Counted from the first letter of the stretch, positions 7,658 through 31,610 are shown. The stretch is 32,000 nucleotides of DNA from Trichlorobacter lovleyi SZ (GCF_000020385.1 NC_010814.1:1200001-1232000), one strand, 5' to 3'. Notes: generated by a model not told the origin, from the sequence alone. Translations and numbers: made by a program.

Positions 7658-7714
7658 AATAGATGATGAAAATGCTGCTTGGGAAGATATTTTTTTAGTG
7701 GGGAGGTTTGCGTC

Positions 7715-11526: not shown

Positions 11527-11587
11527 GCGATGGCACTCGATCATAGTGACAGCTGGGGCAGGGTTGCGCCGGGCGGGCAGGTCATTA

Positions 11588-12181: not shown

Positions 12182-12687
12182 TGAGCAGACCGGCTGTTGT
12201 CTCTTTTGTAGCCCATTCCGGTACCGGTAAGACCACCCTGCTGGAAAAACTGATACCGATCCTGAAGGAGCGGGGCTACCGGGTCGGCGCGATCAAGCAT
12301 GATGCCCATCGCTTCGAGATCGATCATCCCGGCAAAGACAGCCATCGCCTGACCGCAGCCGGTGCCGACAGTATGCTGATCTGCTCCGGTGAGAAACTTG
12401 CCCTGGTGCGCCGGCACCGGCAGGCCCCGGCCATTGAGGAACTGCTCAGGATCTGCGGCCCTGACCTGGATATCATCCTGACCGAGGGGTTCAAGCAAAG
12501 CAGCCTGCCCAAGATAGAGCTGCACCGGGGGGGTCTGGCCAGAGAGCTGATCTGCCGCGGGAACAGCCATGATCCAACCCTGCTGGCCATTGCCAGCGAT
12601 ACGCCGCTTACGGTTGATGTCCCGCTGCTGGATCTGAACAACCCGGCGCAGCTAGCTGATTTTATTGAACAAAGGCTGTTGCGATGA
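12181..12687 (+). CDS. mobB: Molybdopterin-guanine dinucleotide biosynthesis adapter protein
   Basis: P-loop SGTGKTT, followed by GAIKHDAH.FEIDHPGKDSHR, which is typical of MobB. Confidence 0.9.
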   Translation: MSRPAVVSFVAHSGTGKTTLLEKLIPILKERGYRVGAIKHDAHRFEIDHPGKDSHRLTAAGADSMLICSGEKLALVRRHRQAPAIEELLRICGPDLDIILTEGFKQSSLPKIELHRGGLARELICRGNSHDPTLLAIASDTPLTVDVPLLDLNNPAQLADFIEQRLLR

Positions 12688-13676: not shown

Positions 13677-13680
13677 AACG

Positions 13681-14642: not shown

Positions 14643-15587
14643 TTACTTTTTTGGTTCTTCCTTCTTGACCGGTTTAGGGGCATCCCACAACCAGATCTGA
14701 CCAGCCATTGGCAGGGCTACCATATTTGCCCACTCTACCCAGCCACCTTCATATACTTTTACGTTTTTGTAGCCGAGCATATACTTGAGGATAACATAGG
14801 TGTGTGCCGAGCGGTCACCACTGTGGCAGTAGGTATAGATCGTACGATCTCCGTTGACATCTTTTGCCTCATACAGCTTCTTGATGTCTTCAAGTGACTT
14901 GAACAGCTGGCTGTCTTTTTCATTGGCATCGGAACTGGTCACCAGTACCGCTTTGGGTAGATAACCGCCACGGATGGCACGGATATTCTGGGCCTTGAAC
15001 TCGTTTTCCGGCCGGGAATCCAGCAGCAGTACCTCAGGCTTTGCCCCTTGGGCCACATCACGGTAGATGTCACTCCAGGTGACAGTCATGTCAGTTTTTG
15101 TCTTAGCAATCTTGTACTTGCTTTTTTTGATTTTAGTTACATCATCCGTTACCTTATTACCGAGTTTCTTCCAGTTGACAATTCCGCCGTTCAGCAGCTT
15201 CAGCTTGGCTGGGTCGTGGCCAAACATCTCCAACAGAAACAGCAAGCGGGTAGCAAACAGACTTGACTTGTCGTCGTAGGCAACAATCACGGAACCGTTT
15301 TCGATTCCCGACTCAGAGAGAAATTTCTCAAACTGCAACTTGGTTGGGTAGGCGGTGGCTGGATAACGATCAGTGTTGGAGAGATCAAGATAGCGTTTGA
15401 CCTGGATAGCTCCGGGGATATGCTCCTTGTCAAAGGCATTCGGCTTGTCAGCCACATCCATGATCTTGACGTTCTTGTTGTTCATGTTCTTCTTCAGCCA
15501 GTCGGCATCAACCAGGCTGATTGCCAGTGCTGCGCTGTTCATGCTGAACAGAGTGATCAGGGCCAGTGCAAAGATTTTCAATTTCAT
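14643..15587 (-). CDS. Periplasmic tandem-rhodanese sulfurtransferase
   Basis: The start was chosen at MKLKIFALALITLFSMNSAALA (signal peptide) after an AGGAGG RBS. The longer track ORF would overlap the psrC-like gene. There are two rhodanese domains. The first is inactive (AYDDKSS). The second has the active-site loop YCHSGDRS. Confidence 0.85.
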   Translation of the reverse strand: MKLKIFALALITLFSMNSAALAISLVDADWLKKNMNNKNVKIMDVADKPNAFDKEHIPGAIQVKRYLDLSNTDRYPATAYPTKLQFEKFLSESGIENGSVIVAYDDKSSLFATRLLFLLEMFGHDPAKLKLLNGGIVNWKKLGNKVTDDVTKIKKSKYKIAKTKTDMTVTWSDIYRDVAQGAKPEVLLLDSRPENEFKAQNIRAIRGGYLPKAVLVTSSDANEKDSQLFKSLEDIKKLYEAKDVNGDRTIYTYCHSGDRSAHTYVILKYMLGYKNVKVYEGGWVEWANMVALPMAGQIWLWDAPKPVKKEEPKK

Positions 15588-15637
15588 TATGTTACCTCCT
15601 TCAGGATAGTGCCCGATGGGCAGTGAAAAGTAGATTG

Positions 15638-16609
15638 TCAGACCAGTTTGCTGATCTGTCCGGCGTAGACAAAGGTTAGACGGATCACCAGACTTCCCAG
15701 CAAGACCAGTCCGGCGCTCAGATTCATCTTGAGGATGTCGCTGCTGCAAAGTGTTTCATGGCACTCCTTGATCTCGGCCAGTTTCATCACCAATGCCAGA
15801 GGGAAGATGACGCCGATAAACAAGAGTGAGGCGGTATACCAGAGATATTCATGGTTTAAGCTGAAGAACGGCATGATCGAAAGCCGCTGTGATTCAGAGG
15901 AAACATACTGACCGTAGAAAAATAGCGGGATGATGATCATCTCGGCAATGATCAGGCCGATGTCGACCTTTGTGTAAAACAGTTTTACACACTGATCCTT
16001 GGCCAGCACGATCATCAGGGCTGCCCCTGCTGACATGGCTGAACAGAGGAACAGCATCGGCAGGATGGCGGTGTTCCAGAGTGGGCGGGCCACAAAGGCG
16101 CTCAAGAGCACACCGGTGTAGATGCCGATGAAGACCCCCATTGCAGCATTGGCCAGTGCAAGATACTGCATGCGTGGCTTTACCCAGGTGGCCAGATCAT
16201 CCATGAACGGCAGGCGGTACAACCACTCTCTGCGCTGTTCCGGCAGGGTGCCGTAGGCGAACAACAGGCTGATCGGGGTGAACAGCAGCAGCCCCCAGGA
16301 ACCCCAGGACATGGGGGAGAGCGGCTGTATCGTCAGGTAGAACCAGAACACATTCAGCTTGCGGTCCAGGTCCAGAAAGATAAAGAACATACCGATCCCC
16401 AAAATGACCGGTACCAGCCAGGGGGCTACCATGAAGACGGTTTCACCCGCCGGAATACGGTCTTCCTTTTTCTGAAGGTGCATCAGTGAGCTCATCACCG
16501 CCAGGCCTGCAGAAAGGCCGCCCAGAAACAGGTAGAGCGAAACACGCCAGTCCCAGATATGCAGGACCGGATTGGTCATGGCGTTGGCGCCGGTAATAGT
16601 CAGTTCCAT
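15638..16609 (-). CDS. NrfD/PsrC-family integral membrane quinol-interacting subunit
   Basis: 323 aa with about 8-9 TM helices and an NrfD-type N-terminus (WDWRVSLYLFLGGLSAG). A GGGGGAG RBS lies upstream. The gene directly follows the ferredoxin subunit. Confidence 0.85.
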   Translation of the reverse strand: MELTITGANAMTNPVLHIWDWRVSLYLFLGGLSAGLAVMSSLMHLQKKEDRIPAGETVFMVAPWLVPVILGIGMFFIFLDLDRKLNVFWFYLTIQPLSPMSWGSWGLLLFTPISLLFAYGTLPEQRREWLYRLPFMDDLATWVKPRMQYLALANAAMGVFIGIYTGVLLSAFVARPLWNTAILPMLFLCSAMSAGAALMIVLAKDQCVKLFYTKVDIGLIIAEMIIIPLFFYGQYVSSESQRLSIMPFFSLNHEYLWYTASLLFIGVIFPLALVMKLAEIKECHETLCSSDILKMNLSAGLVLLGSLVIRLTFVYAGQISKLV

Positions 16610-16621
16610 AGATGCTCCCCC

Positions 16622-17179
16622 CTATTCCGTGCCAAACCGGCGGATGTAATAGACCCGTGGCTCGGTGCCGGCGCTTTTCATCGGCAGTTCGGCATGGTGC
16701 CCCTTCAGGGCCAGCCGCACCGGGCTTTTCGGGTCATTCAGATCACCAAAGATGCGGGACTTGCCGATACAGGTGGCTACACAGGCCGGCTCCTTGCCTT
16801 CCTTGATCCGGTGGTCGCAGAAGGTGCATTTGTCGGCAAACCCCTTGTTGTGGTCAATGTAGCGGGCGTCATAGGGGCAGGCAGCCACACAGGCCTTGCA
16901 ACCCACACAGCGTTTCTTGTCCAGCAGTACCAGGCCGCTCAGGCGGCTTTTGTAGGAGGCGCGGGTAGGGCAGTTGTAGACACAGGGCGGGTTGTCACAG
17001 TGGTTGCACAGCTCGGAGCGCAATTCAGTGCGCAGATTGGGAAACTGTCCTTCAGTTTTCTCCAGCACCCGTGTGCGAAACTGCTCGGGCGGTACGTTGT
17101 TCTCCGCCTTGCAGGCGACAATGCAGGCCATGCAGCCGATGCAGCGCCGTTGATCGATTACCATTGCATACTTCGGCAT
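16622..17179 (-). CDS. Four-cluster 4Fe-4S ferredoxin subunit (PsrB/PhsB/DmsB type)
   Basis: 185 aa containing CIGCMACIVAC, CNHCDNPPCVYNCP, CVGCKACVAACP and CTFC...C...C motifs. Confidence 0.9.
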   Translation of the reverse strand: MPKYAMVIDQRRCIGCMACIVACKAENNVPPEQFRTRVLEKTEGQFPNLRTELRSELCNHCDNPPCVYNCPTRASYKSRLSGLVLLDKKRCVGCKACVAACPYDARYIDHNKGFADKCTFCDHRIKEGKEPACVATCIGKSRIFGDLNDPKSPVRLALKGHHAELPMKSAGTEPRVYYIRRFGTE

Positions 17180-17180
17180 A

Positions 17181-19373
17181 TCAGGCCCCCTTTACCAGTT
17201 TTACAAAGGTACAACGCATTCCGGTGCCGCCGCAGATCGGATCAACCGGATAGCTGCTGATCAGCTGCTGATCATCCGCCCCTCTGCGGAAAGCCTTTGT
17301 CAGACCTTTTGATTGTTGGCCAAAGCCATGCACCATGTAGACACAGTCTTCTCTAATCCGTTCCGTCACCTTCAGGCGTACGCGGTTTGAGGTGATCCCT
17401 TCCTGATTCTGCAGCGCCACATACTGGCCATCAGTCAGCCCCATTTTTCTGGCCTGTACGCTGCTCAGCCAGAGTTCATTTTCCTTGTACAGCTCGTTCA
17501 AGGCAGGGTTGTTTACCGTACGACTGAAGGTGTGTACCGCACTGCGACCATACAGCAGACGATAGAACCCTTGTGGCGGCTCTTCATTCTTCTCGTAGGC
17601 GGGTATCGGTTCAAACCCCAGCTCTTCAAGTTCCTTGCTGTACAACTCAATCTTGCCTGACTTGGTTTTGAAGACCGGCTGATTGTCGGCGGTGATGAAC
17701 GGCTTTGCCGTGTCAGGGAAGGAAATGACCCCCTTCTGTTTCAGTTCGTCATAGTCGATGTTGTAGGTCAGGCAGAGTTCATTCAGACGATCTTCGAAAT
17801 TTTCCCAGGGGAAGTAGTCTTCCAACCCCAGTTTTTTGGACAGCTCCTTGGCGATCCACCAGGCCGGTTTTGAGTCGTACATCGGCGCTACTGCAGGCTG
17901 GCGGATACTTGCGGACAGAGCGCGTCCCTTGCCGATGATCAGGCCGTCATGCCGCTCCAGGTAGGTGCATTCAGGCAGCACCACATCGGCGTAGAGCGAG
18001 GTGTCAGAGGGGATAACATCAACCACCACCAGCAGATCCAGCTTGCTGATCGCCTCGATGGTCTCTTTCTGGCCCGGCATGGCAGCCAGCAGATTGGTAC
18101 CGGTAACCATCCAGGCCTTGACCGGGTACGGTTCGCCGATACTGGTGGCCTCACGGATGGCGTTGGTGACCCCTTCGGCGCCGCCTAACGGGAAGCCCCC
18201 TTTTTTCAGGGTGGGACGGTTTGAGGCGGGAAAGCTGGGTGGTGGCACTGCCGGGAACGATCCCCTGGTGGCCAGGTAGGCACCCCCTTCTCGTCCCCAG
18301 GTGCCGAGGATGGCGCCCAGAATGGCAATTGCCCGTGAACGTTGTACATCCTTGCCGTCCCAGGTAACGTGGCGGCCGGGATGGATGCAGACTGCCGGGC
18401 GGTGCAGGCCCATCTCGCGGGCAGTGGCCATGATCTGTGCTGCCGGGATATCGGTCTCTTTTTCCGCCCACTCCGGTGTGTACTGCTGTACTGCCGCTGC
18501 AAGCTTATCAAAGCCGTGTGTGTATTTGGCAACGTACTCCCGGTCGTACCAGCCTTCACGGATGATGATATTGATCCAGGCCAGGATCAGGGCCATATCA
18601 CTGGCCGGTTTGATCGGCAGCCAGTGGTGTGCTTTGCCCGCAGCTACCGAAAAGCGGGGATCAACCACGATGATCTTTGCGCCGTTGCCGATCGCATCGG
18701 TAAACTCCTGCACCTGTGAGTTGTGCATGTTCTCGCCCAGGTGAGAGCCGATCAGCACCACCACCTTGCTGTTGGCCATGTCCAATCGTTCAGGTGAACC
18801 GATGTCGTCACCGTAGGTCAGCTCATACCCCACTACCCGTGGCCCACGGCACTGGGCAAAGGATGGCATGGCAAAGTTATTGCTGCCAAACCCCTGTAAC
18901 AGCGGCATGAAATGCTCGGTGGGGGAACCGTGGGTAAACAGGGCCAGTGATTCCGGACCATGCTCTTCCTTGATTTTTTTCAGCTTGTCGGCAATGTGGG
19001 TCAGTGCCTCGTCCCAGCTTGCCTTGCGAAACTGCCCCTCACCCCTTTTGCCGGTTCTGATCAGGGGATGTTTGAGCCGATCCGGGTCGTACAGCAGGCC
19101 GATACCTCCGTTGCCCCGTCCACAGAGCTTGCCTTTAGCGGTTGCAGAGAGCGGATTTCCCTCCAGCTTGACCACCCGGCCACCCACGACGGTGGCAATG
19201 GCGCCGCATTTCCAGAAACACATCTCGCAATAGGTGGTGATTTTTTCTGTCTTGGCCAGCCCCTTTTCACCGGCCCAGAGCAGAAACTGGTCAGGCAGAT
19301 AGGTGGCGGCAATTGCGCCGGCGGTACAGATTCCTGAAGTTTTAAGGAAGGAGCGTCTGCTCATAATCGGCAT
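17181..19373 (-). CDS. Mo-bisPGD oxidoreductase catalytic subunit of the polysulfide / thiosulfate / selenite (Psr/Phs/Srr) reductase type, exported by the Tat pathway
   Basis: 730 aa. A Tat signal (SRRSFLKTSGICTAGAIAA) and a CEMCFWKC-X-C [4Fe-4S] motif are present. The gene order A-B-C plus rhodanese supports the family. Substrate cannot be assigned from the sequence alone. Confidence 0.8.
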   Translation of the reverse strand: MPIMSRRSFLKTSGICTAGAIAATYLPDQFLLWAGEKGLAKTEKITTYCEMCFWKCGAIATVVGGRVVKLEGNPLSATAKGKLCGRGNGGIGLLYDPDRLKHPLIRTGKRGEGQFRKASWDEALTHIADKLKKIKEEHGPESLALFTHGSPTEHFMPLLQGFGSNNFAMPSFAQCRGPRVVGYELTYGDDIGSPERLDMANSKVVVLIGSHLGENMHNSQVQEFTDAIGNGAKIIVVDPRFSVAAGKAHHWLPIKPASDMALILAWINIIIREGWYDREYVAKYTHGFDKLAAAVQQYTPEWAEKETDIPAAQIMATAREMGLHRPAVCIHPGRHVTWDGKDVQRSRAIAILGAILGTWGREGGAYLATRGSFPAVPPPSFPASNRPTLKKGGFPLGGAEGVTNAIREATSIGEPYPVKAWMVTGTNLLAAMPGQKETIEAISKLDLLVVVDVIPSDTSLYADVVLPECTYLERHDGLIIGKGRALSASIRQPAVAPMYDSKPAWWIAKELSKKLGLEDYFPWENFEDRLNELCLTYNIDYDELKQKGVISFPDTAKPFITADNQPVFKTKSGKIELYSKELEELGFEPIPAYEKNEEPPQGFYRLLYGRSAVHTFSRTVNNPALNELYKENELWLSSVQARKMGLTDGQYVALQNQEGITSNRVRLKVTERIREDCVYMVHGFGQQSKGLTKAFRRGADDQQLISSYPVDPICGGTGMRCTFVKLVKGA

Positions 19374-19396
19374 GAAGTAAATCTCCTTTCGGGTAC

Positions 19397-19430
19397 AAAA
19401 AACGCCCTCCGATTAAGAATCGGAAGGCGC
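19397..19430 (-). terminator. Strong intrinsic terminator between the small -GC protein gene and the psrA-like gene
   Basis: On the minus strand, GCGCCTTCCGATT-ctt-AATCGGAGGGCG is followed by TTTTTT. This is a stem of about 12 bp with one G-T pair. It ends about 15 nt before the psrA-like RBS. Confidence 0.7.
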
Positions 19431-19440
19431 CAGGTTGCTA

Positions 19441-19767
19441 TTAGCAGCCAGCAACAACCTCAGTGCCGGTACCCTTGGGAGGCTCGCTCACCGACAGGGT
19501 CATGTTCTGTTTGATCTTGGCGGCCTTGGCCTTGCTGAATTTCAACGTTACCTGCTTTCCCTGCACATCTACCACCGTGGGCATACCGCCGGCTGCAGAC
19601 AGCACTGATCCCTTCTTTACCCAGGTTGGTCCGCCTTTGGCCACTTCCAGGGTGACCCGTTCGCCGTCATTTTTGGTTACCTTGCCGGAAAAGGAAGCGG
19701 CCATGGCGCCACTGCTCAAGGCCAGTGTCGTGAGTGCAACTGCAACCAATGTGATCATCTTTTTCAT
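19441..19767 (-). CDS. Small secreted protein ending in -AGC, a paralog of the 26769-27050 product
   Basis: 108 aa with an AGGAGG RBS and a signal peptide (MKKMITLVAVALTTLALSSGAMA). The mature part aligns with the ExtJ-like protein (GKV..V.DG..V.LE.....KKG......G....V.V.G..V.LK.S.A.A..IK). Both end in Gly-Cys followed by the stop codon. Confidence 0.7.
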   Translation of the reverse strand: MKKMITLVAVALTTLALSSGAMAASFSGKVTKNDGERVTLEVAKGGPTWVKKGSVLSAAGGMPTVVDVQGKQVTLKFSKAKAAKIKQNMTLSVSEPPKGTGTEVVAGC

Positions 19768-19821
19768 AAGTTTTTCCTCCTGATAGTGGGATGTTTACGT
19801 GAAATCGATGGAGGTGACTTA

Positions 19822-19837
19822 AGCAAGTGCGGTGCCA
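19822..19837 (-). promoter_or_regulatory. Sigma54 (-24/-12) promoter
   Basis: The minus strand reads TGGCAC-CGCAC-TTGCT, a perfect match to TGGCAC-N5-TTGCW. It lies 54 nt upstream of the ATG at 19767 and directly downstream of a sigma54-dependent regulator gene. Confidence 0.8.
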
Positions 19838-19946
19838 ATAGGTAACACACTTAAATTATTGAAATGTGGCGGCATATGGTTGTTTCAAAATGAAACGATC
19901 GTGCAGATTGAATGAAATGAGAGGGGGTTAATGGGGGTGGGCTGAC

Positions 19947-21290
19947 TTACAATCCGTACTGTTTTACTTTTCTCCAAAGTGAGGCAAGACTGATGCCAAG
20001 CAGTTTTGAGGCCTTGCCCCGATGCCCTGCGGTGGCTTTGAGTACGCGGATGATATGCCGTCGTTCCACTTCAGCCATTGGAAGCAGTTCCTGGTCGGAT
20101 GAGGATGAAAGCGGGGTGTCGGATACAGAAAAGCGCGGCAGGTACTGCGGCTGCAGTTCGTTTCCATCAGCCATAATCACAGCCCGTTCAATGATGTTTT
20201 CCAGTTCACGCACATTGCCGGGCCAATGATAGTTGCGCAGACTCTGCAACGCCTCTGGAGAGATGCTGGACAGCTGCACTCCGTATTGCCTGGCGTAGCG
20301 GGTCAGAAAGTAGTGGGCCAACAGGCCGATGTCACCATTGCGTTCACGAAGCGGCGGCAGTGTAATCGTGACCACGTTCAGGCGATAAAACAGATCACTG
20401 CGAAATCTCCCTGTCTGGACCTCCTTTTCAAGCGTTGTGTTGCTGGCGGCGATCACCCGCAGGTCAACCGAGCGCGGTTCGTGGTCACCAACCCTGATGA
20501 AGCTCCCTTCCTGCAAAACCCTCAGTAACTTGACCTGAAAGGCTGGAGAGGTGGTGTTGATTTCATCCAGAAACAGGGTGCCATGGTCTGCAGATTCCAG
20601 CAGCCCTTTCTTGTCTTTGTCAGCACCGGTAAAGGCACCGCGGGCATGGCCAAACAGCTCTGATTCCAGCAGTGTTTCAGGCAGGGCGCCACAGTTGATC
20701 GGCAGGAAACGCTGGTCACGACGCTGGCTCAGGCGGTGAATCATTCGTGCCGCCAACTCCTTGCCGGTTCCGGTTTCCCCCTGAATAAGGACCGTGGTAT
20801 CAAAAGGTGCGATCCTGGTGATCAGCGCCTTCAGTGTAGTCATCTGTTTGCTGGCGCCCAGAAGCTCGTCGGCTTGGCATCCGGCTACCTGCTGGCGTAG
20901 CTGGCGATTTTCATCCTGTAGACGCAACCGTACCAGTGCCCGTTGCACCACCAGCAACAGTTGATCCGGCTCAAACGGTTTCTGCAGATAGTCGTAGGCG
21001 CCGTTTTTAATTGCCTGTACTGCCGACTCAATTGAACCGTATCCGGTAATCACCACCACCAGGCAGTCAGGGTTAGCCTGAAGGGCCAGGTTCAGCAGTT
21101 CCATGCCGTCTATCTGTGGCATCATCAAATCAGTGATGATCAGATCTGTTGTTTGGCGTAACACCATTTCTGCAGCCTCAGCGCCGTCACTGCAGAGGAC
21201 TGCATTGATACCCTCACTTGCCAGAGTATCCCTGATCAGTTGCCGCATCCTCAGGTCATCATCGACAATGAGAATAAGTGGATCAGGCAT
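19947..21290 (-). CDS. Sigma54-dependent response regulator (NtrC family)
   Basis: 447 aa. The receiver reads DDD...DLMMPQIDG. Walker A is GETGTGKEL. The GAFTGA motif is canonical and ESELFGH is present. The C-terminal HTH reads [19 protein letters not shown]. Confidence 0.9.
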
Positions 21291-22938
21291 CGACCGACTC
21301 CTTGCAGGGCAGGATTACAACAAAGGTCGTGCCTCTGCTGTCTGACTTGACAATATCGATATTGCCGCCGTTCTCATTCACAATTCCTGCGCAGATGGAA
21401 AGTCCCAGCCCGGTTCCTTCCCCAAACGGCTTGGTGGTAAAAAATGGGTCAAAGATGCGGCTTCTTACTTCATCCGGGATGCCGGGGCCGCTATCCTGCA
21501 CCTCAAGTCTGACCCCTTCTGGCTGACGTCTGACAATAATACGGATCTCTCCCTGACTACCAATCGCCTGCAGGGCATTCATCACCAGATTCAGCACTAC
21601 CTGTTCAATTCCCCATGGGTCGGCGCAGACCTTCGGGATCAGCTCAAGGTCAGTGGTCAGGATGATCTTGCGTTTGCTGAGTTCAGTGGTAAGCAGGCAA
21701 AGGGCATTTTTAATGACACTATTCAGGTCACATGCGTCCAGGCGACACTGGGTTGGTTGGGCATGGCGGGAGAAGTTGAGCAAGGCCTGGATGATGGTGC
21801 CGCTCTTTTTGGCCTGCTCCGCAATCACTGCCAGCTGTTCACGCTGCTGTTGGGTCAGGTTCTCCTGTTTCAGTAACAGCCGGGCGTATCCCAGGATGCT
21901 TCCCAATGGGGTGTTCAGTTCATGGGCAACACCGGCAGAGAGCTGCCCGATTGCCGACAACTTTTCAGTGCGGTGATACAGTTCCTGCTGTTTCTTCTCT
22001 TCGGTAATGTTTCTGAAGGTGATCACACGGCCGATCCGTTTCATTTCATTATCCAGCAAGGGGGCCATGTTGAGTGATAGGTGGCATTCGTTTGCACGAG
22101 CCTGCGTGCAGGTTAGCTCAAGTCCTTGAATGATTTCCATCGGATCAGTCAGCTCAACGCTTATGACAGGAAAGAGGTCCGTAAGAGCCAGGCCAATCAG
22201 CTCCGCTTCATCACGTTGCAGGATCATGGTTGCAGAACGGTTAACCGAAAGGATCCGGTCATTGGTACCAGCCACCAGTAATCCCTCTGACAAGCTTTCC
22301 AGTACTGTTGCCAGCTTTGACTTCTCTGTCAGGTAAAAATCACGTTGCTCTTTTTCCGATTGTTCTGCCATCTTTTTTTCTGTGATATCAAGTGATACCT
22401 CGATGACGGTGGTAACCTTGTTGTTTTCATCACGTGCAAACGGCGTGGTGGCAACCTGAAAATACTTGCCTCGCTTGACAATCTCCCGCGCAACGGCCGG
22501 TTGACCGGTGGCAAAGGTGTATTTGGCCGGACAATGCTCCACCGGTGCATTGCGGTTGCCGTAGGCATCAAAGCAATAACAGCCTGTAACATCTTCAGCT
22601 TCCGGCGCCAGCAGCAGGGTGCGTTGTTTTTCGTTGCAGCGCAGGATACGGAAGTTGCGGTCGATGATTGAAATTCCTACCCCGGTGGCATCAAAGATCG
22701 CCTGCAGTTCATCCTTGGCTACCTGTAATTCATTGATGGTTTCATTGAGATACTCCAGTATGTGGCCGAATGACTGGGCAATCGTGCCGATCGGATCAAG
22801 CTCGATCAGAGCATGATCGTCCAGCTCTTCCTCCTGCAGCGGCTCGGTGCCCATAACTCCCAGCAGTTGGTTGGTCTTTTCCCTGATGTAGCGAACATAG
22901 GCAAGACAGTTTTCCTGTTGCTTGGGGCATCCGCTCAT
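21283..22938 (-). CDS. Cytoplasmic PAS-PAS histidine kinase
   Basis: 551 aa with no TM segment. There are two PAS-like regions, the first carrying a GCYCF...HCP cysteine cluster. The H-box is GVAHELNTPLG and the HATPase motifs are DSGPGI / GTGLGLSIC. Its start overlaps the TusA-like stop (ATGA) and its end overlaps the regulator start. Confidence 0.9.
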   Translation of the reverse strand: MSGCPKQQENCLAYVRYIREKTNQLLGVMGTEPLQEEELDDHALIELDPIGTIAQSFGHILEYLNETINELQVAKDELQAIFDATGVGISIIDRNFRILRCNEKQRTLLLAPEAEDVTGCYCFDAYGNRNAPVEHCPAKYTFATGQPAVAREIVKRGKYFQVATTPFARDENNKVTTVIEVSLDITEKKMAEQSEKEQRDFYLTEKSKLATVLESLSEGLLVAGTNDRILSVNRSATMILQRDEAELIGLALTDLFPVISVELTDPMEIIQGLELTCTQARANECHLSLNMAPLLDNEMKRIGRVITFRNITEEKKQQELYHRTEKLSAIGQLSAGVAHELNTPLGSILGYARLLLKQENLTQQQREQLAVIAEQAKKSGTIIQALLNFSRHAQPTQCRLDACDLNSVIKNALCLLTTELSKRKIILTTDLELIPKVCADPWGIEQVVLNLVMNALQAIGSQGEIRIIVRRQPEGVRLEVQDSGPGIPDEVRSRIFDPFFTTKPFGEGTGLGLSICAGIVNENGGNIDIVKSDSRGTTFVVILPCKESVDA

Positions 22939-23195
22939 GATTTACCGCCGATACTGATCTCGTACCAGGTTTCCACCTTGCGGACTTCGACAGCCAGCCC
23001 CATCTTTTGAGCAGAAGCAGGAACCGTACGGGTAGTGTCACGATGATCGGTACGCACCAACAGCCGTGCGGTATCATTCCTCAGGCGTTCCCGATATTGG
23101 TTGATCTGCTTGAGTACTACCAACAGGCAGGCTGGGCAGACCTGGCCGAGGATATTGAGTTCTATTGTTTCAACTGAGCGCTCATCATTGCTCAT
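22935..23195 (-). CDS. TusA/YedF-family sulfur(selenium)-carrier-like protein with a CPAC active-site variant
   Basis: 86 aa, starting at MSNDERS after an AGGAGG RBS. LNILGQVCPACLLVVLKQ aligns with TusA LDALGLRCPEPVMMVRK. The C-terminus (WYEISIGG) resembles TusA (YRYLIRKG). Confidence 0.7.
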   Translation of the reverse strand: MSNDERSVETIELNILGQVCPACLLVVLKQINQYRERLRNDTARLLVRTDHRDTTRTVPASAQKMGLAVEVRKVETWYEISIGGKS

Positions 23196-24024
23196 CTGTT
23201 TTACCTCCTGAATGTTTGACGCTGACAGCTGTCGGGTGGGCAAGCCGGAACCCAAGGCCACTGAAACGCCCGTTGGGAGCAAACCAGTAGCGAATGGATG
23301 CGCGGATGCATTTGGGTTCGCAATCCCAGCAGCCACCCCGGACGGCCTTTTCAGAGGATGTAGTGGGGCCTTGAGGATTCATCCTCGGGCTTTTGCTATA
23401 ATAGCTCGTATCAAACCAGTCCTGCACCCATTCCCACACATTGCCGCTCATATCATAGATGCCGAGTCCATTAGGCTTTTTCTGTCCAACTGGATGTGGT
23501 CTGCCATCGGAATTGTCATGGTGCCAGGCCAGAACATCAATGTCGTTACCTCCACAGAACTTCTCCTGTTTACCACCGCTGCGACAGGCGTATTCCCATT
23601 CAGCCTCGCTGGGGAGACGGAACTGTAGTCCGGTTTGTCTGTTCAGGCGTTGGATAAACTGTTGAACCTCATTCCAGCTGACCTGCTCAACCGGGCAGCT
23701 GTCGCCGCAATCCCTGAAGTTGGATGGCCTATTGCCCATGAACTGTTTCCATTGCCCCTGCGTGACCTCGTATTTGGCAATCATAAAGTCTGATACACAG
23801 ACCTCATGAACCGGCTTCTCGTCGCCAGCGCTTTCAAGAATGAATTCACCCATCTGAAAGCAGCCCCCTTTTACCGGGACAAGTTCGATGTCGCTGCGTT
23901 GTCTCAGCTCATCAGGCACCAACAGTGCATCATGAGCATCACAGATCACTGGCAACAGCAGTATGGTCAACCAGGTGAGGGCTGAAAGGGTGTATAGATG
24001 CTTTTTAATCGAGGGAGTACCCAT
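23185..24024 (-). CDS. Secreted FGE-sulfatase (SUMF1/EgtB/PvdO) domain protein
   Basis: The start was chosen at MGTPSIKKHLYTLSALTWLTILLLPVI (signal-like) after a GGAG RBS. Family motifs are present: YEVTQGQW, RLPSEAEWEYACR, GNVWEWVQDW and RGG.W. The longer track ORF would overlap the yedE-like gene. Confidence 0.85.
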   Translation of the reverse strand: MGTPSIKKHLYTLSALTWLTILLLPVICDAHDALLVPDELRQRSDIELVPVKGGCFQMGEFILESAGDEKPVHEVCVSDFMIAKYEVTQGQWKQFMGNRPSNFRDCGDSCPVEQVSWNEVQQFIQRLNRQTGLQFRLPSEAEWEYACRSGGKQEKFCGGNDIDVLAWHHDNSDGRPHPVGQKKPNGLGIYDMSGNVWEWVQDWFDTSYYSKSPRMNPQGPTTSSEKAVRGGCWDCEPKCIRASIRYWFAPNGRFSGLGFRLAHPTAVSVKHSGGKTDEQ

Positions 24025-24068
24025 GCAGGTCTGTCTCCTGGGACAGCAAAGGAAGAAGACTGTCCTGT

Positions 24069-25175
24069 TTAGCCGCTGTCTTTTGTTTGAGTAATCACCA
24101 GTGGTAGTATCTGTGCGCCGTGCCATGCCCCAAGCAGCATACTCATGACAAACAGCAGTGCCTCAATTGATAAAAGCGGCAGGCCTCCCAGCAGAAATTT
24201 GATGTTGCAGCCATTGGCCAGTCGAGCACCTAGTGCGATCAGAATTCCTCCAGTGAAGGCAGTCAGTCCCTGACGCCACGGGGGTAGTCCATATACCCTG
24301 AACTCTTTCAGAAAAAGTGAGGTAAGCAGTGCTCCGCCCAAAATGCCGGCCATAAAGGGCAACTCGGTCAATAGGGTAGGATCAGACATTGTTCCGGTTG
24401 GGGATGTTGTGGTCAATCCAGTCTGCTGAAGCAGTTGTTCCAAGTGCAAGACATGTGCTGAAAAGAGTTGTGACTCAAGCCATAGTCCGATGCGGAGGTA
24501 GGCTGTTGAGATACCCAGAGGCCAGCCGTTTATCAGGTAGGCCGATAGATTGAGCAGGGCAAGTCCGATGGCAATCTTCCAGGGCTGCAGGTATCCATTG
24601 GCTGCCGCAACTATCTGTAAAAGCCCGCCACGATACCAGCGCAGGGCGAAGAAAAATGTTAGCAGTATCACTATAATGTTGATTGTTTCAGCAGTAAGAG
24701 GCCAATGCTGGATTAGAAGCTTATTTTCGCTTGCACCTCCAGTTTGGAGTAGCTCTTTGAACAACGGCTGCAGTTCGGCATAGAACACACTACCTGTAAC
24801 GATGCCGACAAAGGCGACACCGTGGGAAAGGTTGCCACTCCCCATCTTGTACAGTGTGCTTATCACACAGCCGCCAGCAAGAACCATTCCGATGCCAAAC
24901 AACCACCCACCTGTCATAGAAGCGATGGAAGGCAACCCAAAGGTGGGTGGAGGTGTTGCTGATACTAAGCCGATATAACGAGCAAGGGTGAATAGTGACA
25001 GGGTTAGTCCCACAGCCAGCAGCAAGGGGCGCAAGAGGGTGCGATCCTGAAATAAAAATTGATCACGTAAAATGCCGGCAATGCAGAAATCCCCACGATA
25101 GAGCATGTTCCCCAGTGCCAAGCCAATGACCAGGTTGAAGCCGATAGTAACCCATGGGGAAAGAGTGATCGTCAT
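24069..25175 (-). CDS. YeeE/YedE-family membrane protein (a putative thiosulfate or selenium-compound transporter)
   Basis: 368 aa and polytopic. The family's Cys-containing motifs are repeated: GDFCIAG, GGCVISTLYK and ANGCNIKF. Confidence 0.8.
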   Translation of the reverse strand: MTITLSPWVTIGFNLVIGLALGNMLYRGDFCIAGILRDQFLFQDRTLLRPLLLAVGLTLSLFTLARYIGLVSATPPPTFGLPSIASMTGGWLFGIGMVLAGGCVISTLYKMGSGNLSHGVAFVGIVTGSVFYAELQPLFKELLQTGGASENKLLIQHWPLTAETINIIVILLTFFFALRWYRGGLLQIVAAANGYLQPWKIAIGLALLNLSAYLINGWPLGISTAYLRIGLWLESQLFSAHVLHLEQLLQQTGLTTTSPTGTMSDPTLLTELPFMAGILGGALLTSLFLKEFRVYGLPPWRQGLTAFTGGILIALGARLANGCNIKFLLGGLPLLSIEALLFVMSMLLGAWHGAQILPLVITQTKDSG

Positions 25176-25270: not shown

Positions 25271-25299
25271 AAAAAAAGCCGGCGGTTTGAGCCGCCGGC
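25271..25299 (-). terminator. Intrinsic terminator after the cytochrome gene
   Basis: On the minus strand, GCCGGCGG-ctcaaa-CCGCCGGC is followed by TTTTTTT, about 50 nt after the stop at 25351. Confidence 0.75.
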
Positions 25300-25350
25300 A
25301 CCACATGAAGGAGGGATAGGTGAGTATCCCTGTGTTGCTTGTTTTGCCGG

Positions 25351-26691
25351 TTATTTTCCGGTAGTACTGATTTTTACGGTCTTTTTGAACTCTTTCCAGA
25401 GGAACGGATCATCATCCATGGTGCCGAACGGCAGATACCAGAGCCTGACTTCCAGATCCAGGGTGTCGCTGCTGATGCTGCTTACCTTCTTGCCATCCTT
25501 CTCCTCTGTCTTGACCGGGAAGAAGATGTCATGGGTTGTGGTGATCGTCCTCAACGGCGGCAGGCTGGTGTCTTCCAGCATACCGCTCTTTTCGTAAGGA
25601 CCACGTCCCATCCGGTCGCCTTTACCCAGTTGCTGAGGAATCGGCATGAATATACGTTCTGCGTTGAATACTTCCTTGCCACTCTTGTCTTTTGCTTTTA
25701 CCGACAGAACCAGTCGGTTGGGGGTCGGTCAGCCATCGGGTATGCCGTGACCGGCCTTGTTGGTCAGCTCAATCCGTACCGCTGCCTTGGGACGGATAGT
25801 CGTGTTATCCCGCCAGTAGACCGAGTTGGTTTCCACATGCATCTCAACCGCCTTTTGAGCCATCTCCTTGGAGCGGTAACTCTGCATGTTATGGCCCAGC
25901 TTGCTCTCACGCATATGGCACTGCTGGCAGCTCTTGTTGCCCCCTTCCGGTATATAGGCCATCAGGTAGCTGGCATAGCCGGTTGCACACTGGGTCGGGT
26001 TTTCCTGATCAAAGTTGGGGCCCTGTCCGTGACACTGGCCACACATGATCGATTCAGACATGATCTGCCCTTTGGCCATTTTGGTGAACTTGCCATCCAT
26101 ATGCTCGCCTGACTTGCTGCCGTAGACCGTATCCTTTTTGGGGTAGCCTTCAGACCACTTGTGGGTAATGGCATTACGGTTGTGGCAGATCAGGCAGTTA
26201 ATATTAAGTGAGGAAAGGGTCTTCTCAAGTTTTTCTGCCTTGTCGGTATCTTCCTTTTTAATGGCGGCATCCCAATCCCAGAGCGTGGTCACGATTTCCT
26301 GAGCAACCTTGTCGGTTGCATCAGCCAGTTGGGGCAGGTGACACTTGGTACAGCCCTGCAGGTGTTCAACCTTGACATCCTTGGGTGACTTGACACCGGA
26401 GGCGGGCCAATCCATTGCGCCGTTGATGATAGCGGTCCTGAAGGTGGCTGCAGTACGTCCTGTGCCAAAGATAGAGCGGGCGTGGATCGATTTTGCCCAT
26501 TCATCATGGGCCTGCTGATGGCAGCCGATGCAGGAACTGGAGTCATAGCGTGCCACCAGTTCGGCAATACTGTTGGCCTTGGGCTGCGAAGCAAGGGTGG
26601 CGTCGCGGCCAACACCGACAGGAGCGGCAAGCGCAAAGGTTACCCCCGCCAGCAGCACAATAGCTGCCAGTGATAATATTTTTCGTATCAT
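25351..26691 (-). CDS. extKL: Periplasmic pentaheme c-type cytochrome with an in-frame UGA at codon 321, a probable selenoprotein (ExtKL-like)
   Basis: The start is at MIRKILSLAAIVLLAG (signal peptide) after an AAGAGGA RBS. Five CXXCH motifs are present (CIGCH, CTKCH, CLICH, CGQCH, CQQCH). The track splits the gene into 25729-26730 and 25351-25647, but I checked that the frame is identical. No other stop occurs across ...NKAGHGIPDG-TGA-PTPNRLVLSVKAKDKSGKEVFNAERIFMPIPQQ... . A hairpin follows the TGA. Confidence 0.7.
25700..25731 (-). other. In-frame UGA plus a candidate bacterial SECIS hairpin
   Basis: The minus strand reads UGA, then 10 nt, then the stem ACCGAC / GUCGGU (25700-25705 pairing with 25713-25718) with the loop UGGUUCU. 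The loop begins 17 nt after the UGA and has G at its second position. Confidence 0.5.
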
Positions 26692-26725
26692 GGGTGAAGT
26701 TCCTCTTGTTAAAGGAATGGCGGAG

Positions 26726-26758
26726 GCCATGAGGGGGGCATAAACTCCCCCTCATGGC
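26726..26758 (-). other. Very stable intercistronic hairpin (12-bp GC-rich stem) with no T-tract
   Basis: GCCATGAGGGGG-9 nt loop-CCCCCTCATGGC. It starts 10 nt after the TGA stop of the ExtJ-like gene and ends about 35 nt before the cytochrome ATG. Confidence 0.6.
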
Positions 26759-26768
26759 TCGATGGTGA

Positions 26769-27050
26769 TCAGCAACCCTGCATAGAGGCCATTTTGTCAA
26801 CCTTGACGGTGTCGCCAGCCTTCAGGTCGGCGGCGTTGGAGGCCTTGATGGTCAGCTTGGTGCCATCCACGGCTGTTACCTTGCCGGCCTTGCCGTTCAG
26901 CTTGACCCCGGCGCCTTTTTTGAACTTGGCATCAGCGCCCATTTCAACCACAGCCTGGCCATCGGCAACGGAAACCACCTTGCCCTCGGCAGCAAAGGCA
27001 GCAGTGGCGGCAAAGAGGGACAGAGTCAGCATAACGAGAATCTTCTTCAT
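26769..27050 (-). CDS. Small periplasmic protein ending in -QGC (ExtJ-like), a paralog of the 19441-19767 product
   Basis: 93 aa, starting at MKKILVMLTLSLFAATAAFA after an AAGGAG RBS. The sequence has a Lys/Gly/Val-rich beta-type composition. The C-terminus is Gly-Cys followed by TGA. Confidence 0.7.
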   Translation of the reverse strand: MKKILVMLTLSLFAATAAFAAEGKVVSVADGQAVVEMGADAKFKKGAGVKLNGKAGKVTAVDGTKLTIKASNAADLKAGDTVKVDKMASMQGC

Positions 27051-27078
27051 GGTATAACTCTCCTTTGTGGTCCTCAAG

Positions 27079-27414
27079 TTAGTCGGCTATCGGTTTTGCA
27101 TTCCACATAAAACGCGTATTTGACTTTTTGTCAGAAATCTTGCTGTCTGGCTTCTTGGTCTCTTTGACCGTTTCTGCAGCAGCCTTGGGCGCCTCCTGGT
27201 GGGGAGCCGGTTGCTGTACAACCGGTTGCTGCTGTGGTGTTGCAGCGGCTGTGCCACCAACAAACTGCCAGGAGTTAATGGTGGTGCTCGGCTCATCCAG
27301 CGAAACGGTCTGAGTCTTGCCGGAGCGGTAGGTGATCACCAGGGTGTCGGCAAAGCAAATGTTGGCACAGACCAGGGTGAGTAGTGCAGCGGTAATAAGA
27401 TTCCACTTTTTCAT
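27079..27414 (-). CDS. Small secreted protein with a Pro/Gln/Ala-rich linker and a Lys-rich tail
   Basis: 111 aa with an AAGGAG RBS and a signal peptide (MKKWNLITAALLTLVCANICFA). I recognise no family. Confidence 0.6.
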   Translation of the reverse strand: MKKWNLITAALLTLVCANICFADTLVITYRSGKTQTVSLDEPSTTINSWQFVGGTAAATPQQQPVVQQPAPHQEAPKAAAETVKETKKPDSKISDKKSNTRFMWNAKPIAD

Positions 27415-27473: not shown

Positions 27474-28943
27474 CTAGAATACCACCTGCAGCATCATACG
27501 GAAAGTGTCGAACGAGTTGACGTCTTTAACGTAGCCTGAGGCAACACCGGGCGTACTGGCACCCGGTACCACAAACGCCATTTTCTTGGAGAAGTCTGTT
27601 TTCAGATATTCAGCGGTCAGACGGACCCGCTGGTCGCCGGTGATGTAGTAGTTGAGGCCACCACCGATCTGCTCAATCCGTTGACCGTCAACCCCCAACA
27701 GGTGGGCAAAACGCCAGTTTTCATACAGAGCGTAGGGTTGCAGCTTGCCCATACCGCCGATCTTGAACGGCAGGATATGGGCAACCTTGGTGTAGAAACC
27801 TTCCTTCTGGCCGTTCATGCCGGAAACCACTGCCAGTTTATCACCGGATGAGGCTGTCAGATAGGCATCTTCAAAATCTACTTTCAGATATTGTGCGGTA
27901 ATCGTGGGGACACCAAAAGCGGTCGGGTATTCAAACATGCCGTCAACCGCAATTGCACTGTAATCAACCGTACCTTTGCTGGTGTTGGCCATTGTTGTTA
28001 CTTTGGTTACCGAGGATGTCGTTGCAGGTCCTGGGGCCGTGGTGGAGGAAGTGCCGTCTGACAGCCAGTAGACGTTCTGGGTATTTTTGTAGGCTGCCTG
28101 AGGCTGAAACGCGCCGCCGACGCCGATGTTGAGGATTTTTTTCTCTCCGAAATAGGTGCCTTGATAACCGGAACCGCCTTCTGATTCGAGGAAGTCAAAG
28201 GTCAGGCGCGCGACATATTCAAGATTGGTTTTTGGGGCTGTACTGGTAGTGGCAGGAGCCCCCATGATTTTGTTCGGGGCGCCGTTCGGATAGTTGGGGG
28301 CATAGGGAATAGCCGTTTGGCTGGTCCCTTCTCGTCCCTGAAAGATACCGGCAAAATAGGTCAGTCGGTCATTAAAGAAACGTCCCACTGCCACGCCACC
28401 CAGGTCACGGCTGAATTTGGCCGGTGAGGATCCGTAAGCTGAGTAGACAAACATGGAGCGGTCCTGTGACAGCGGTGCGAAACAGTCATCCAGATTGGCA
28501 CGGCTTAAAGGAATCTTGGTCAGACCGACCTTCAGGTTGATATGCTCGTTGAAATTTGCAATGGCGTAGGCGTCAATGATCCGTATATCACGGTCGTTCC
28601 AGTCGGTATCCTGCTGTGAAAGCGTGTACATGAACGGGTTTTTGGTGGTGCCGGTGTTACCGCAGGTCTGGAACTTGTAGCCCCAGGTCTCATCCAGCAT
28701 GCCGGTCAGACCCAGGCGGTTACGCATGAAGTGCAGGTCAGTCCTGTTTTCCTTGCCGTCGTTTCCACCACCTAAACTGGTATTTTCCAGATAAAACTGC
28801 CCCTTCAGATCAATCTGTACAAAACCGCCATCATCGCCAAACTCGATTCGCGGTCCTGCCTGGGCAGCCCCCGCGCACAGCATGGTGGCTGCCAGTGCAA
28901 CAGCGCAATACTGCAGATTCCGCTTGCTGCTTTTCTTGCTCAT
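27474..28943 (-). CDS. extI: Outer-membrane beta-barrel porin (ExtI-like / OprO-P-like)
   Basis: 489 aa with a signal peptide ending AQA. The sequence shows an alternating beta-strand pattern rich in Gly, Tyr and Thr. The C-terminus is ...RMMLQVVF, a terminal Phe typical of OMPs. It is the first gene of the porin / small proteins / cytochrome operon. Confidence 0.75.
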   Translation of the reverse strand: MSKKSSKRNLQYCAVALAATMLCAGAAQAGPRIEFGDDGGFVQIDLKGQFYLENTSLGGGNDGKENRTDLHFMRNRLGLTGMLDETWGYKFQTCGNTGTTKNPFMYTLSQQDTDWNDRDIRIIDAYAIANFNEHINLKVGLTKIPLSRANLDDCFAPLSQDRSMFVYSAYGSSPAKFSRDLGGVAVGRFFNDRLTYFAGIFQGREGTSQTAIPYAPNYPNGAPNKIMGAPATTSTAPKTNLEYVARLTFDFLESEGGSGYQGTYFGEKKILNIGVGGAFQPQAAYKNTQNVYWLSDGTSSTTAPGPATTSSVTKVTTMANTSKGTVDYSAIAVDGMFEYPTAFGVPTITAQYLKVDFEDAYLTASSGDKLAVVSGMNGQKEGFYTKVAHILPFKIGGMGKLQPYALYENWRFAHLLGVDGQRIEQIGGGLNYYITGDQRVRLTAEYLKTDFSKKMAFVVPGASTPGVASGYVKDVNSFDTFRMMLQVVF

Positions 28944-30032: not shown

Positions 30033-30060
30033 CCATGCCGGTTATGCGTAACCGGCATGG
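30033..30060 (+). terminator. Perfect 12-bp hairpin after the lysR-type gene
   Basis: CCATGCCGGTTA-tgcg-TAACCGGCATGG. There is no T-tract, so it could be a terminator or a regulatory structure. Confidence 0.4.
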
Positions 30061-30158
30061 CTCCTTGCAAATGTTTCACCACCTCTCTTCTGATACCTGC
30101 GCTAGACTGCTCACCAATTGTTTTTCTCTTCCATCTAAAACCACCAAGGAGGAATTGT

Positions 30159-31610
30159 ATGAAGCTGTGCCGTTCGTTGTTGTTGCTGGCCGGACTGCTA
30201 CTGGCTGTTTCAAGCAGTGCCATAGCCGGTGTTGACCACTCTGATTTTGTTAAGGGTCCTTTCAAGGAAGGCCGTGACGTAACCAGGCAGTGTCTGGAAT
30301 GCCACGAAAAACAGGCAACTGATGTCATGAAGACAACTCACTGGACCTTTGCCGGTACTCCCAACCATATCAAGGGGATGGAGAAAAGCACCAAAAAATA
30401 CGGCAAGGCCAACATGATCAACAATTTCTGTACCACTGCTTTTAACGGCCCGGACGGAGTTGTCCACGAATCATGCTTTAAGTGCCATGCCGGTTATGGT
30501 TGGACCCGTACCAAGTTTGACCTGACCGACAAGAGCCGGGTTGACTGTCTGGTTTGCCATGCCCAGAAAGGTAACTACGATCGCGCTGCAGCAGGTTGCG
30601 ATGTGAACATGGGAGCGATGGAGAAGGGTTCCATGGATCTTGAAAAGGCAGCCAAGAGTGTTGCCAAGTCAACCCTGCAGAACTGTGGCTACTGCCACTT
30701 TAACGGTGGCGGCGGTGATGCGGTTAAAAACGCCGGTCTTGACTCGACCTTGCTTGCTGCTGATAAAAAGCAGGATGTCCATATGGCCAGGAAAGAAAAG
30801 GGCGGCCTGGGGATGATGTGTCAGGATTGCCACAAGACCAAGGATCATAGCGTTGCTGGTGCTTCTTCCCAGATGGCCCATTATGACAGCCGTACCAGCT
30901 GTGAAGATTGCCACAGCGGCGCAAAGGCACCTCACCAGAAATCCAAAAATGCGGCTATTCTTGCAAAACATACCGCTTCGGTGGCCTGCCAGACCTGTCA
31001 TATCCCGGTCTTTAACAAGGGCCAGGCCACCAAGATGATGTGGAACTGGTCTGATGTGGGCAAAGATATCAAGGCAGAAGAGGAGTTTGACCAAGAGACC
31101 TTTGCCAAGCGTAAAGGTTCCTTCAGATGGGGTAAAAACGTGGTGCCGGTCTATGCCTGGTACAATGGCAAGATTGAGCGCTATATGGTTGGTGACAAGA
31201 TCAAAGATCCTTCCAAGCCGGTTAACATCACCAAACCGGTTGGTGATATCAAAGACAAGACTGCCAAGATCTATCCGTACAAATACTTTACCGGTACACA
31301 GCCAATGGACAGCAAATTCAAGTACCTGAACACTTTCCAGCAGTACAAGGAACTGTGGATCAATTTTGACTGGGAAAAAGCGTTGGTAAACGGGGCCAAA
31401 TGTACTGACAACTGCCTGCCCTACAGCGGCAAGCACCAGTTTGTGAAGACGGTTTCCTATATTGCTGCCCAACATGAAGTTTCACCAAAAGAAGATGCCC
31501 TGCAGTGTGGTGAATGCCATATGGGTGGCAAGCGGATGGATTGGAAAGCCTTGGGGTATAAAGCTGATCCGATGAACGTTGGCGGACGGTTCAGCGGCAG
31601 AAGGAAGTAG
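30159..31610 (+). CDS. Octaheme c-type cytochrome, tetrathionate-reductase (Otr) family
   Basis: The start is at MKLCRSLLLLAGLLLAVSSSAIA after an AAGGAGG RBS. Eight CXXCH motifs are present (CLECH, CFKCH, CLVCH, CGYCH, CQDCH, CEDCH, CQTCH, CGECH). The N-terminus (DHSDFVKGPF...CLECHEKQA...THW) matches my recollection of Otr-type proteins. Confidence 0.8.
   Translation: MKLCRSLLLLAGLLLAVSSSAIAGVDHSDFVKGPFKEGRDVTRQCLECHEKQATDVMKTTHWTFAGTPNHIKGMEKSTKKYGKANMINNFCTTAFNGPDGVVHESCFKCHAGYGWTRTKFDLTDKSRVDCLVCHAQKGNYDRAAAGCDVNMGAMEKGSMDLEKAAKSVAKSTLQNCGYCHFNGGGGDAVKNAGLDSTLLAADKKQDVHMARKEKGGLGMMCQDCHKTKDHSVAGASSQMAHYDSRTSCEDCHSGAKAPHQKSKNAAILAKHTASVACQTCHIPVFNKGQATKMMWNWSDVGKDIKAEEEFDQETFAKRKGSFRWGKNVVPVYAWYNGKIERYMVGDKIKDPSKPVNITKPVGDIKDKTAKIYPYKYFTGTQPMDSKFKYLNTFQQYKELWINFDWEKALVNGAKCTDNCLPYSGKHQFVKTVSYIAAQHEVSPKEDALQCGECHMGGKRMDWKALGYKADPMNVGGRFSGRRK

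Follow-up and report, generated by a model that had tools for sequence, protein, structure and literature searches.

A 32,000-nucleotide stretch of the Trichlorobacter lovleyi SZ chromosome (GCF_000020385.1 NC_010814.1:1200001-1232000, hereafter the window) carries on its minus strand the gene extKL. We are highly confident that extKL is here a single gene, that its product is a periplasmic five-haem c-type cytochrome and that the in-frame UGA at 25729-25731 is decoded as selenocysteine (Sec). The TGA, taken by itself, almost certainly encodes selenocysteine. The gene is an ordinary orthologue of the one encoding ExtKL of Geobacter sulfurreducens, also named MccSep (GSU2937-GSU2936; PDB 9WT8, 9WT9, 9WTA-C). 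The G. sulfurreducens extKL/mccsep gene is the subject of the study by Mihara et al. (PMC13510729; bioRxiv Nov 2025, Sci Adv Aug 2026). The assignment is already known; it is correct but not new. We have observed directly the reading frame, its conservation, the constraint at the RNA level, the cysteine homologues, the family membership and the catalytic residues.

On the minus strand, 460 codons running from 26730 to 25351 share one frame, which closes at the TAA at 25351-25353 and contains the TGA at 25729-25731 as its sole internal stop. The likely start codon is the ATG at 26691 (MIRKIL...), which has AAGAGGA upstream and was also chosen by the gene callers on identical metagenome contigs. 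The gene and its parts are located as follows.

25351-26691, minus strand: extKL / mccsep, 446 codons from the ATG at 26691 to the TAA at 25351-25353 (frame, NF040886 and PDB match)
26626-26691, minus strand: predicted Sec-type signal peptide MIRKILSLAAIVLLAGVTFALA, with AP following the cleavage point (read by eye from the sequence)
26338-26340, minus strand: His118 (H122 of MccSep), proximal ligand of haem 2 by the orthologue structure
25987-25989, minus strand: Cys235 (C239 of MccSep), distal ligand of the active-site haem 2 by the orthologue structure
25729-25731, minus strand: in-frame TGA, predicted Sec codon (U321 here, U325 in G. sulfurreducens MccSep; conservation and alignment)
25354-25728, minus strand: C-terminal 125 residues (the former "ExtL"), an immunoglobulin (Ig)-like beta-sandwich after the Sec, carrying Lys368 (K372 of MccSep)

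The joined protein contains five CxxCH motifs (CIGCH 54, CTKCH 114, CLICH 166, CGQCH 217 and CQQCH 255), all of which align with the MccSep PDB chain, and its mass would be ~47 kDa as the mature apoprotein and ~50 kDa with five haems. The junction peptide reads GHGIPDG-*-PTPNRLVLSVKAKDKSGKEVF. Past the TGA, no ATG occurs before codon +28, and the one there is not closely preceded by a Shine-Dalgarno sequence, so that the former ExtL part lacks a start codon of its own across its first 27 codons. The first-pass annotation, made from this DNA by itself, had proposed a pentaheme cytochrome encoded in one frame joined by a single TGA, with a peptide that reads smoothly across the junction (GHGIPDG-U-) and a downstream ATG 28 codons on that is devoid of a ribosome-binding site; the frame, the translation and the five motifs bore out each of these points. 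The N-terminus, judged by eye, is hydrophobic with an ALA/AP boundary. The predicted signal peptide is consistent with periplasmic export, and the orthologue is itself periplasmic.

A single TGA linking two open stretches is not remarkable by itself, and the case rests on comparative evidence. The window (54% G+C) offers 30 such TGA-joined pairs, each of two long open stretches, and nearly all of them lie in frames that do not code for protein. We have inspected these 30 for other selenoprotein genes, and only at 25729-25731 was the joined frame a real coding frame. The candidate TGA at 7733-7735 (minus strand) was rejected because it lies antisense to a plus-strand gene for an ACR3-type transporter. 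The antisense open reading frame (ORF) there spans 7733-8722 on the minus strand (329 aa, plus a TGA-joined extension with the junction "CKT*C") and shadows the ACR3-type gene at 7679-8755 (plus strand). Since the raw frame and the hairpin described below are statistically unremarkable, their significance comes from the comparative data.

The family assignment was unequivocal. The joined protein scored 604.5 bits against the NCBIfam equivalog NF040886, "multiheme c-type cytochrome (seleno)protein ExtKL" (cutoff 250), with residues 11-441 covering positions 4-422 of the 423 in the profile. Compared with this family it shows no difference of substance, and current NCBI annotation rules would name the gene automatically. 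Against the MccSep chains of PDB 9wt8/9wt9, residues 6-446 aligned with residues 10-450 at 61% identity (E ~1e-188), and the TGA fell on residue 325, which is the Sec replaced in the U325A chain. Besides the five CxxCH motifs, the two proteins have in common the IPDG-U-PTPNR context, a signal peptide, predicted here, as well as an Ig-like domain at the C-terminus, and the two genes share extI/extJ immediately upstream and a hairpin resembling a selenocysteine insertion sequence (SECIS) directly after the UGA. Residues R83, H122, C239 and K372 of MccSep correspond to R79, H118, C235 and K368 here; all four are present, and they are invariant in the alignment with distant homologues. MccSep C240 is replaced by Ala in the window protein, at a position that is non-conserved and whose C240A variant is active (PMC13510729). 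ExtKL is listed among the known prokaryotic selenoprotein families in a 2026 review (PMC13188914), and the selenoprotein had already been proposed in silico and the cluster named (PMC5877670). Both G. sulfurreducens and T. lovleyi are documented carriers of the ext cluster, and at least 8 selenoprotein genes are present in the former.

We have then examined the TGA in related genomes by scanning one genome per species, which gave 13 close loci from Geobacter, Trichlorobacter lovleyi, other Desulfuromonadales-type metagenome-assembled genomes (MAGs), a Fibrobacteraceae MAG and a Vicinamibacterales MAG. The codon after ...PDG was TGA in 13 of 13. In 12 of them the frame runs on for ~125 codons, opening with the invariant peptide PTPNRLVLSV directly after the TGA; the thirteenth locus (L007) has the TGA, with the contig edge at that place. 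The loci with a downstream peptide are at 69-87% identity. Conservation over the 27 codons that separate the TGA from the first ATG is on a par with that of the rest of the protein, and the downstream frame is under purifying selection at the protein level, with synonymous change free outside the hairpin. Searching proteins with the joined sequence gave 986 homologues. Among the best 120, nearly all were ~320 aa long (283-336 aa), in line with gene calls stopping at this TGA, and four of the five homologue sequences retrieved (P0001, P0013, P0036 and P0114) end in ...GHGIPDG. The fifth, P0037 (420 aa, 96% coverage), was considered as a full-length homologue without Sec and discarded, being a frameshifted read-on with junk after RIELTNIA.

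These data bear on the possibility that the TGA is a true stop and that extK (a 320-aa pentaheme cytochrome) and extL (~98 aa) are translated independently. Automatic calls on identical contigs do give separate 320-aa and 98-aa products, GSU2937 and GSU2936 of G. sulfurreducens were originally annotated separately, TGA is a common stop in the window and no sel genes are in view. Against these points, 27 codons after the TGA would have to be conserved, and PTPNRLVLSV kept invariant in 12 loci, with neither a start codon nor a ribosome-binding site to serve them, and the Cys-type homologues described below are single ORFs. Moreover, an antibody to the downstream part of MccSep detected one band of ~49 kDa, and the junction peptide spanning Sec325, VEMTNHAGHSIPDGUPTPNR, was detected by electrospray ionization mass spectrometry (PMC13510729). 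The residue at this position lies in the active site of the crystal structure (PMC13510729). We thus consider two independently translated genes very improbable.

A pseudogene, or a Cys (TGC/TGT) or Trp codon misread in sequencing or assembly, would need just one base change, which is all that separates TGA from TGC, TGT and TGG. Thirteen independent genome assemblies share this TGA. In addition, 17 independent metagenome contigs from several samples carry the exact 320-aa N-terminal product, called there as ending at the TGA, with 99-100% nucleotide identity where aligned. Together with the purifying selection on the downstream frame, this leaves such an explanation next to no probability, and conservation effectively refutes it.

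Further support for a selenoprotein came from homologues with cysteine. When the C-terminal 125 residues were used in an exhaustive HMMER search, two full-length, single-ORF proteins with Cys at the TGA column were identified, P0124 (438 aa; GHGFPDG-C-PTPNRLVL / GHGFPDGCPTPNRLVL) and P0134 (455 aa; GHPLPDG-C-PTTTRLIL). They match MccSep in architecture, show ~45% identity and share the G-[C]-P-T motif, and having Cys for Sec they are uninterrupted ORFs. Cysteine at the TGA column of full-length homologues is the classical selenoprotein criterion. The alignment check that the first-pass annotation had suggested for the U position gave Cys in P0124/P0134 and U325 in MccSep. Together with the NF040886 match and the RNA-level constraint described below, this supported its proposal of a Sec-encoding UGA with a SECIS hairpin, equivalent to Geobacter ExtKL.

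More distant proteins were also compared. The multiheme cytochromes of loci L015-L017 (23% identity) have an H-x-x-P-T/E motif and yet neither Sec nor Cys, and were placed outside the MccSep family. They keep N-x-x-x-H-x-x-P before an Ig-like domain, with Thr, Tyr or Glu replacing G-U/C. Judging from these sequences, the Sec/Cys site is an innovation specific to the MccSep family on a wider scaffold.

Directly after the TGA lies the candidate SECIS element.

25700-25718, minus strand: SECIS core hairpin ACCGAC-UGGUUCU-GUCGGU, 6-bp stem and 7-nt loop with GGU

Counted from the base after the UGA, the stem is formed by A11-C16 and G24-U29, thus starting at +11, and it encloses a loop of 7 nt, UGGUUCU, whose first base is at +17 and whose second is G (free energy, -9.1 kcal/mol). 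The position of the hairpin, the loop at +17 and the G at the second loop position are as first proposed. Bacterial elements of the bSECISearch type have a stem-loop soon after the UGA, a loop ~16-37 nt away and a G in the first loop positions, and the hairpin at 25700-25718 has this geometry (stem +11, loop +17, G at loop position 2). In the E. coli fdhF-type SECIS, a stem-loop ~11 nt past the UGA has an apical loop with GGU. The hairpin described here is alike in distance and in its GGU loop; it differs in its shorter stem (6 invariant bp) and in matching no Rfam model, and SelB binding is putative.

ACCGAC-UGGUUCU-GUCGGU is the RNAalifold consensus structure and is invariant in 12 sequences. 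A competing pairing with the first ACCGAC copy, given by the minimum free energy fold of the single sequence, was rejected as it is broken in L002, L005 and L012. We have then analyzed codon usage in the 12 sequences (249 codons). Only 6 of the 96 columns with an invariant, degenerate amino acid used a single codon in all 12 sequences, and hairpin codons +4, +5, +6, +8 and +9 accounted for five of those six (permutation p < 5e-6). When restricted to the 60 columns of at least four-fold degeneracy, the mono-codon columns were four, every one in the hairpin. The third positions of the Pro-Thr-Pro codons just upstream of the hairpin vary freely. Conservation, rather than covariation, thus supported that the hairpin is under constraint at the RNA level.

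The hairpin also bears on the possibility that the UGA is read through without Sec, by near-cognate suppression as Trp/Cys or by a lineage-specific change of the code. Such a reading finds room in the fact that the selenium measurements come from the orthologue, and in there being no sel genes in view. As to a change of code, TGA is the normal stop in 11 of the 27 window genes; hence the code is not globally reassigned and recoding is site-specific. As to suppression, the nucleotide sequence itself is conserved in a hairpin that has the geometry of a bacterial SECIS. Each MccSep subunit contained 4.9 Fe and 0.96 Se, and the U325C variant was severely impaired, being almost inactive (PMC13510729). 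Given the near inactivity of U325C, insertion of Cys or Trp would give a dead enzyme. We therefore give read-through as another amino acid only a very small chance.

Several observations weigh against the reading of extKL as a single selenoprotein gene. Sec insertion and activity rest on an orthologue that is 61% identical. No selA, selB, selC or selD was found in the 32-kb window or in the related loci examined. ARAGORN found no tRNA-Sec, either in the window or among the 21 loci that it scanned, a result that is uninformative. In the RNA fold check suggested by the first-pass annotation, the hairpin emerged as the RNAalifold consensus but folded no better on its own than shuffled sequence (z = +0.49). 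All six hairpin pairs are invariant, leaving zero compensatory covariation in the 12 sequences, and an Rfam scan of the window at gathering thresholds returned neither SECIS nor any other RNA family. Finally, extKL has neither an extH gene next to it nor extM-S (12-haem, 10-haem, Rieske, cytochrome b and others) on its downstream side.

Selenocysteine insertion, the activity and the localization of the window protein would follow by analogy with the orthologue, for which the first-pass annotation had considered the role of Sec beside the haems to be unstudied. This view is out of date: selenium content, mass spectrometry, kinetics of polysulfide reduction, structures at 1.75 A, mutants and physiology are all available (PMC13510729). 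The MccSep signal peptide is cleaved after residue 25, and the 1.75 A structure shows a homotetramer in which a cap binds the haems and the C-terminal part forms an Ig-like stem (PMC13510729). H122 and C239 are the ligands of haem 2, and U325 is 3.6 A away from the Cys sulfur (PMC13510729). The earlier suggestion that Sec could be a haem ligand was thus wrong, Cys239 being the ligand of haem 2, whereas a redox-active Se or chalcogen-binding site, suggested with it, was right. MccSep is a methyl-viologen-linked polysulfide reductase with a weaker selenite reductase activity; activity was lost in U325A, U325C and C239H, and an mccsep deletion mutant showed a growth defect on elemental sulfur (PMC13510729). 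In the proposed cycle, selenolate attack on the substrate gives a Se-(S/Se)-S-Cys intermediate that is reduced through haem 2 (PMC13510729).

Because every catalytic residue is conserved, we have assigned the MccSep mechanism to the window gene. A SelB-type elongation factor with Sec-tRNA(Sec) would bind ACCGAC-UGGUUCU-GUCGGU, 11 nt past the UGA, and the hairpin-bound factor would let translation run on into the 125-residue Ig-like C-terminal domain. By orthology, the enzyme would act as a polysulfide reductase, and secondarily as a selenite reductase, in elemental-sulfur respiration. Electrons would travel along the haem chain to haem 2, ligated by His118/Cys235, and near Arg79 the S-S (or Se) substrate would be held and attacked by the selenolate of Sec321. 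This would give a Sec-Se-(S/Se)-S-Cys235 intermediate, to be reduced via haem 2, with Lys368 probably assisting catalysis. MccSep resembles TsdA and SoxAX, sulfur enzymes with His/Cys-ligated haem, in having a Cys-ligated catalytic haem in S-S chemistry, and selenoprotein thioredoxin reductase in its selenolate nucleophile and mixed Se-S intermediate (all named in PMC13510729). These proteins are unrelated to MccSep in sequence and fold, and the likeness is one of mechanism only.

The genes around extKL were annotated as follows, those of its own unit and upstream region being given first.

25278-25299, minus strand: intrinsic terminator, 8 G-C pairs then T7, starting 52 nt past the extKL stop
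26769-27077, minus strand: extJ, small exported protein (NF040942 62.4 bits, cutoff 52.5; 58-87% identity in related loci)
27079-27414, minus strand: orf111, 111-aa exported protein between extI and extJ, no family match
27474-28943, minus strand: extI-type outer-membrane porin, divergent 489-aa form (NF040900 282 bits, cutoff 150; Porin_O_P)
30057-31610, plus strand: octaheme tetrathionate-reductase-family cytochrome (TIGR04315 516 bits), adjoining a LysR gene
24069-25175, minus strand: YeeE/TsuA-like sulfur transporter
23185-24126, minus strand: FGE/EgtB-like protein
~22935-23165, minus strand: TusA
19947-22938, minus strand: PAS histidine kinase and sigma54 response regulator
17181-19373, minus strand: PsrA/PhsA-like molybdoenzyme
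16622-17179, minus strand: 4Fe-4S subunit
15638-16609, minus strand: NrfD/PsrC subunit
14643-15749, minus strand: tandem rhodanese, ExtH-like below cutoff

The extI-type porin gene and extJ lie immediately upstream of extKL, as in the extHIJKLMNOPQS cluster. The terminator at 25278-25299 closes the extI-orf111-extJ-extKL unit, and the same hairpin was seen after the stop in several related loci. The orf111 product, not named in the published ext cluster, is Gln/Pro/Ala-rich in its middle part and has counterparts of 31-36% identity at the same position in L004, L005 and L010. The window ExtI is ~30% identical to ExtI of other Geobacter loci and 49% identical to that of the Vicinamibacterales (Acidobacteriota) MAG L013, while ExtJ and ExtKL are 58-87% identical to their Geobacter counterparts. 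With these identities, the ext cluster at the window looks mosaic. The only ExtH-like candidate in the window, the rhodanese at 14643-15749, scored below cutoff (89.8 bits vs 200). Upstream of extI is the divergent LysR gene.

Downstream of extKL, a sulfur-metabolism island occupies 14643-25175 on the minus strand, and it fits the polysulfide role of MccSep. A yeeE gene after extKL was found in 0 of the 13 related genome loci. The octaheme Otr family has selenoprotein members according to the 2026 review (PMC13188914). The families of the window Otr and YeeE proteins both include selenoprotein forms; here both ORFs are uninterrupted and have end-to-end profile matches. Elsewhere in the window, a second molybdopterin oxidoreductase, exported by the twin-arginine translocation (TAT) route (315-2885), adjoins a cytochrome c7 gene (2908-3210), both on the minus strand, and molybdenum-cofactor genes (mobA, mobB, moaA and MOSC-DUF2703) lie at 11546-14469 on the plus strand. 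The oxidoreductase and the cofactor genes are consistent with a respiratory island rich in molybdenum enzymes.

The 17 metagenome contigs with the exact 320-aa product fell into more than one genomic context. Some represent the same locus as the window (99.7-99.9% identity). Contigs L020, L025 and L028 have the canonical context, with a 403-aa ExtI, a small ORF, ExtJ and ExtKL, then ExtM onward, and such contigs match the window only at 27066-25272 (99.05-99.94% identity). The shared segment is a ~1.8-kb cassette of extJ, extKL and the terminator, located at 25272-27066 (minus strand) in the window, at 1-1736 in L020, at 569-2362 in L025, at 1738-3503 in L028 and at 1-1280 in L018. Four contigs (L020, L021, L030 and L031) stop at window positions 26999-27029, no more than ~70 nt from the edge of the repeat at 27066. 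The overlap of L020, by its far end, with the start of L018, both being oriented alike, suggests that one chromosome holds the 1.8-kb cassette in two direct copies ~20 kb from each other. The window copy could then be a second, recently duplicated or gene-converted extJ-extKL-terminator cassette, placed under the 489-aa ExtI' and beside the sulfur-trafficking island. We put this forward tentatively, as a possibility that we rate somewhat below an even chance. The two contexts may also reflect strain variation or chimeric assembly.

The main value of these results is a correction of the annotation, as gene callers split extKL into a 320-aa cytochrome and a 98-aa orphan where there is one selenoprotein. 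The enzyme class, the Sec site, the structure and the mechanism are already published, and no open question is newly opened; the fresh angle is limited to the alternative neighborhood (yeeE, tusA, psrABC) and the apparent two-copy cassette. If the duplication is true, the selenoenzyme would be deployed as a portable module in two settings of electron transfer or sulfur import, and the neighboring genes would be candidates for bringing polysulfide or thiosulfate-type substrates to MccSep or carrying them away from it. For the organism itself, extKL marks a likely respirer of elemental sulfur/polysulfide that needs selenium.

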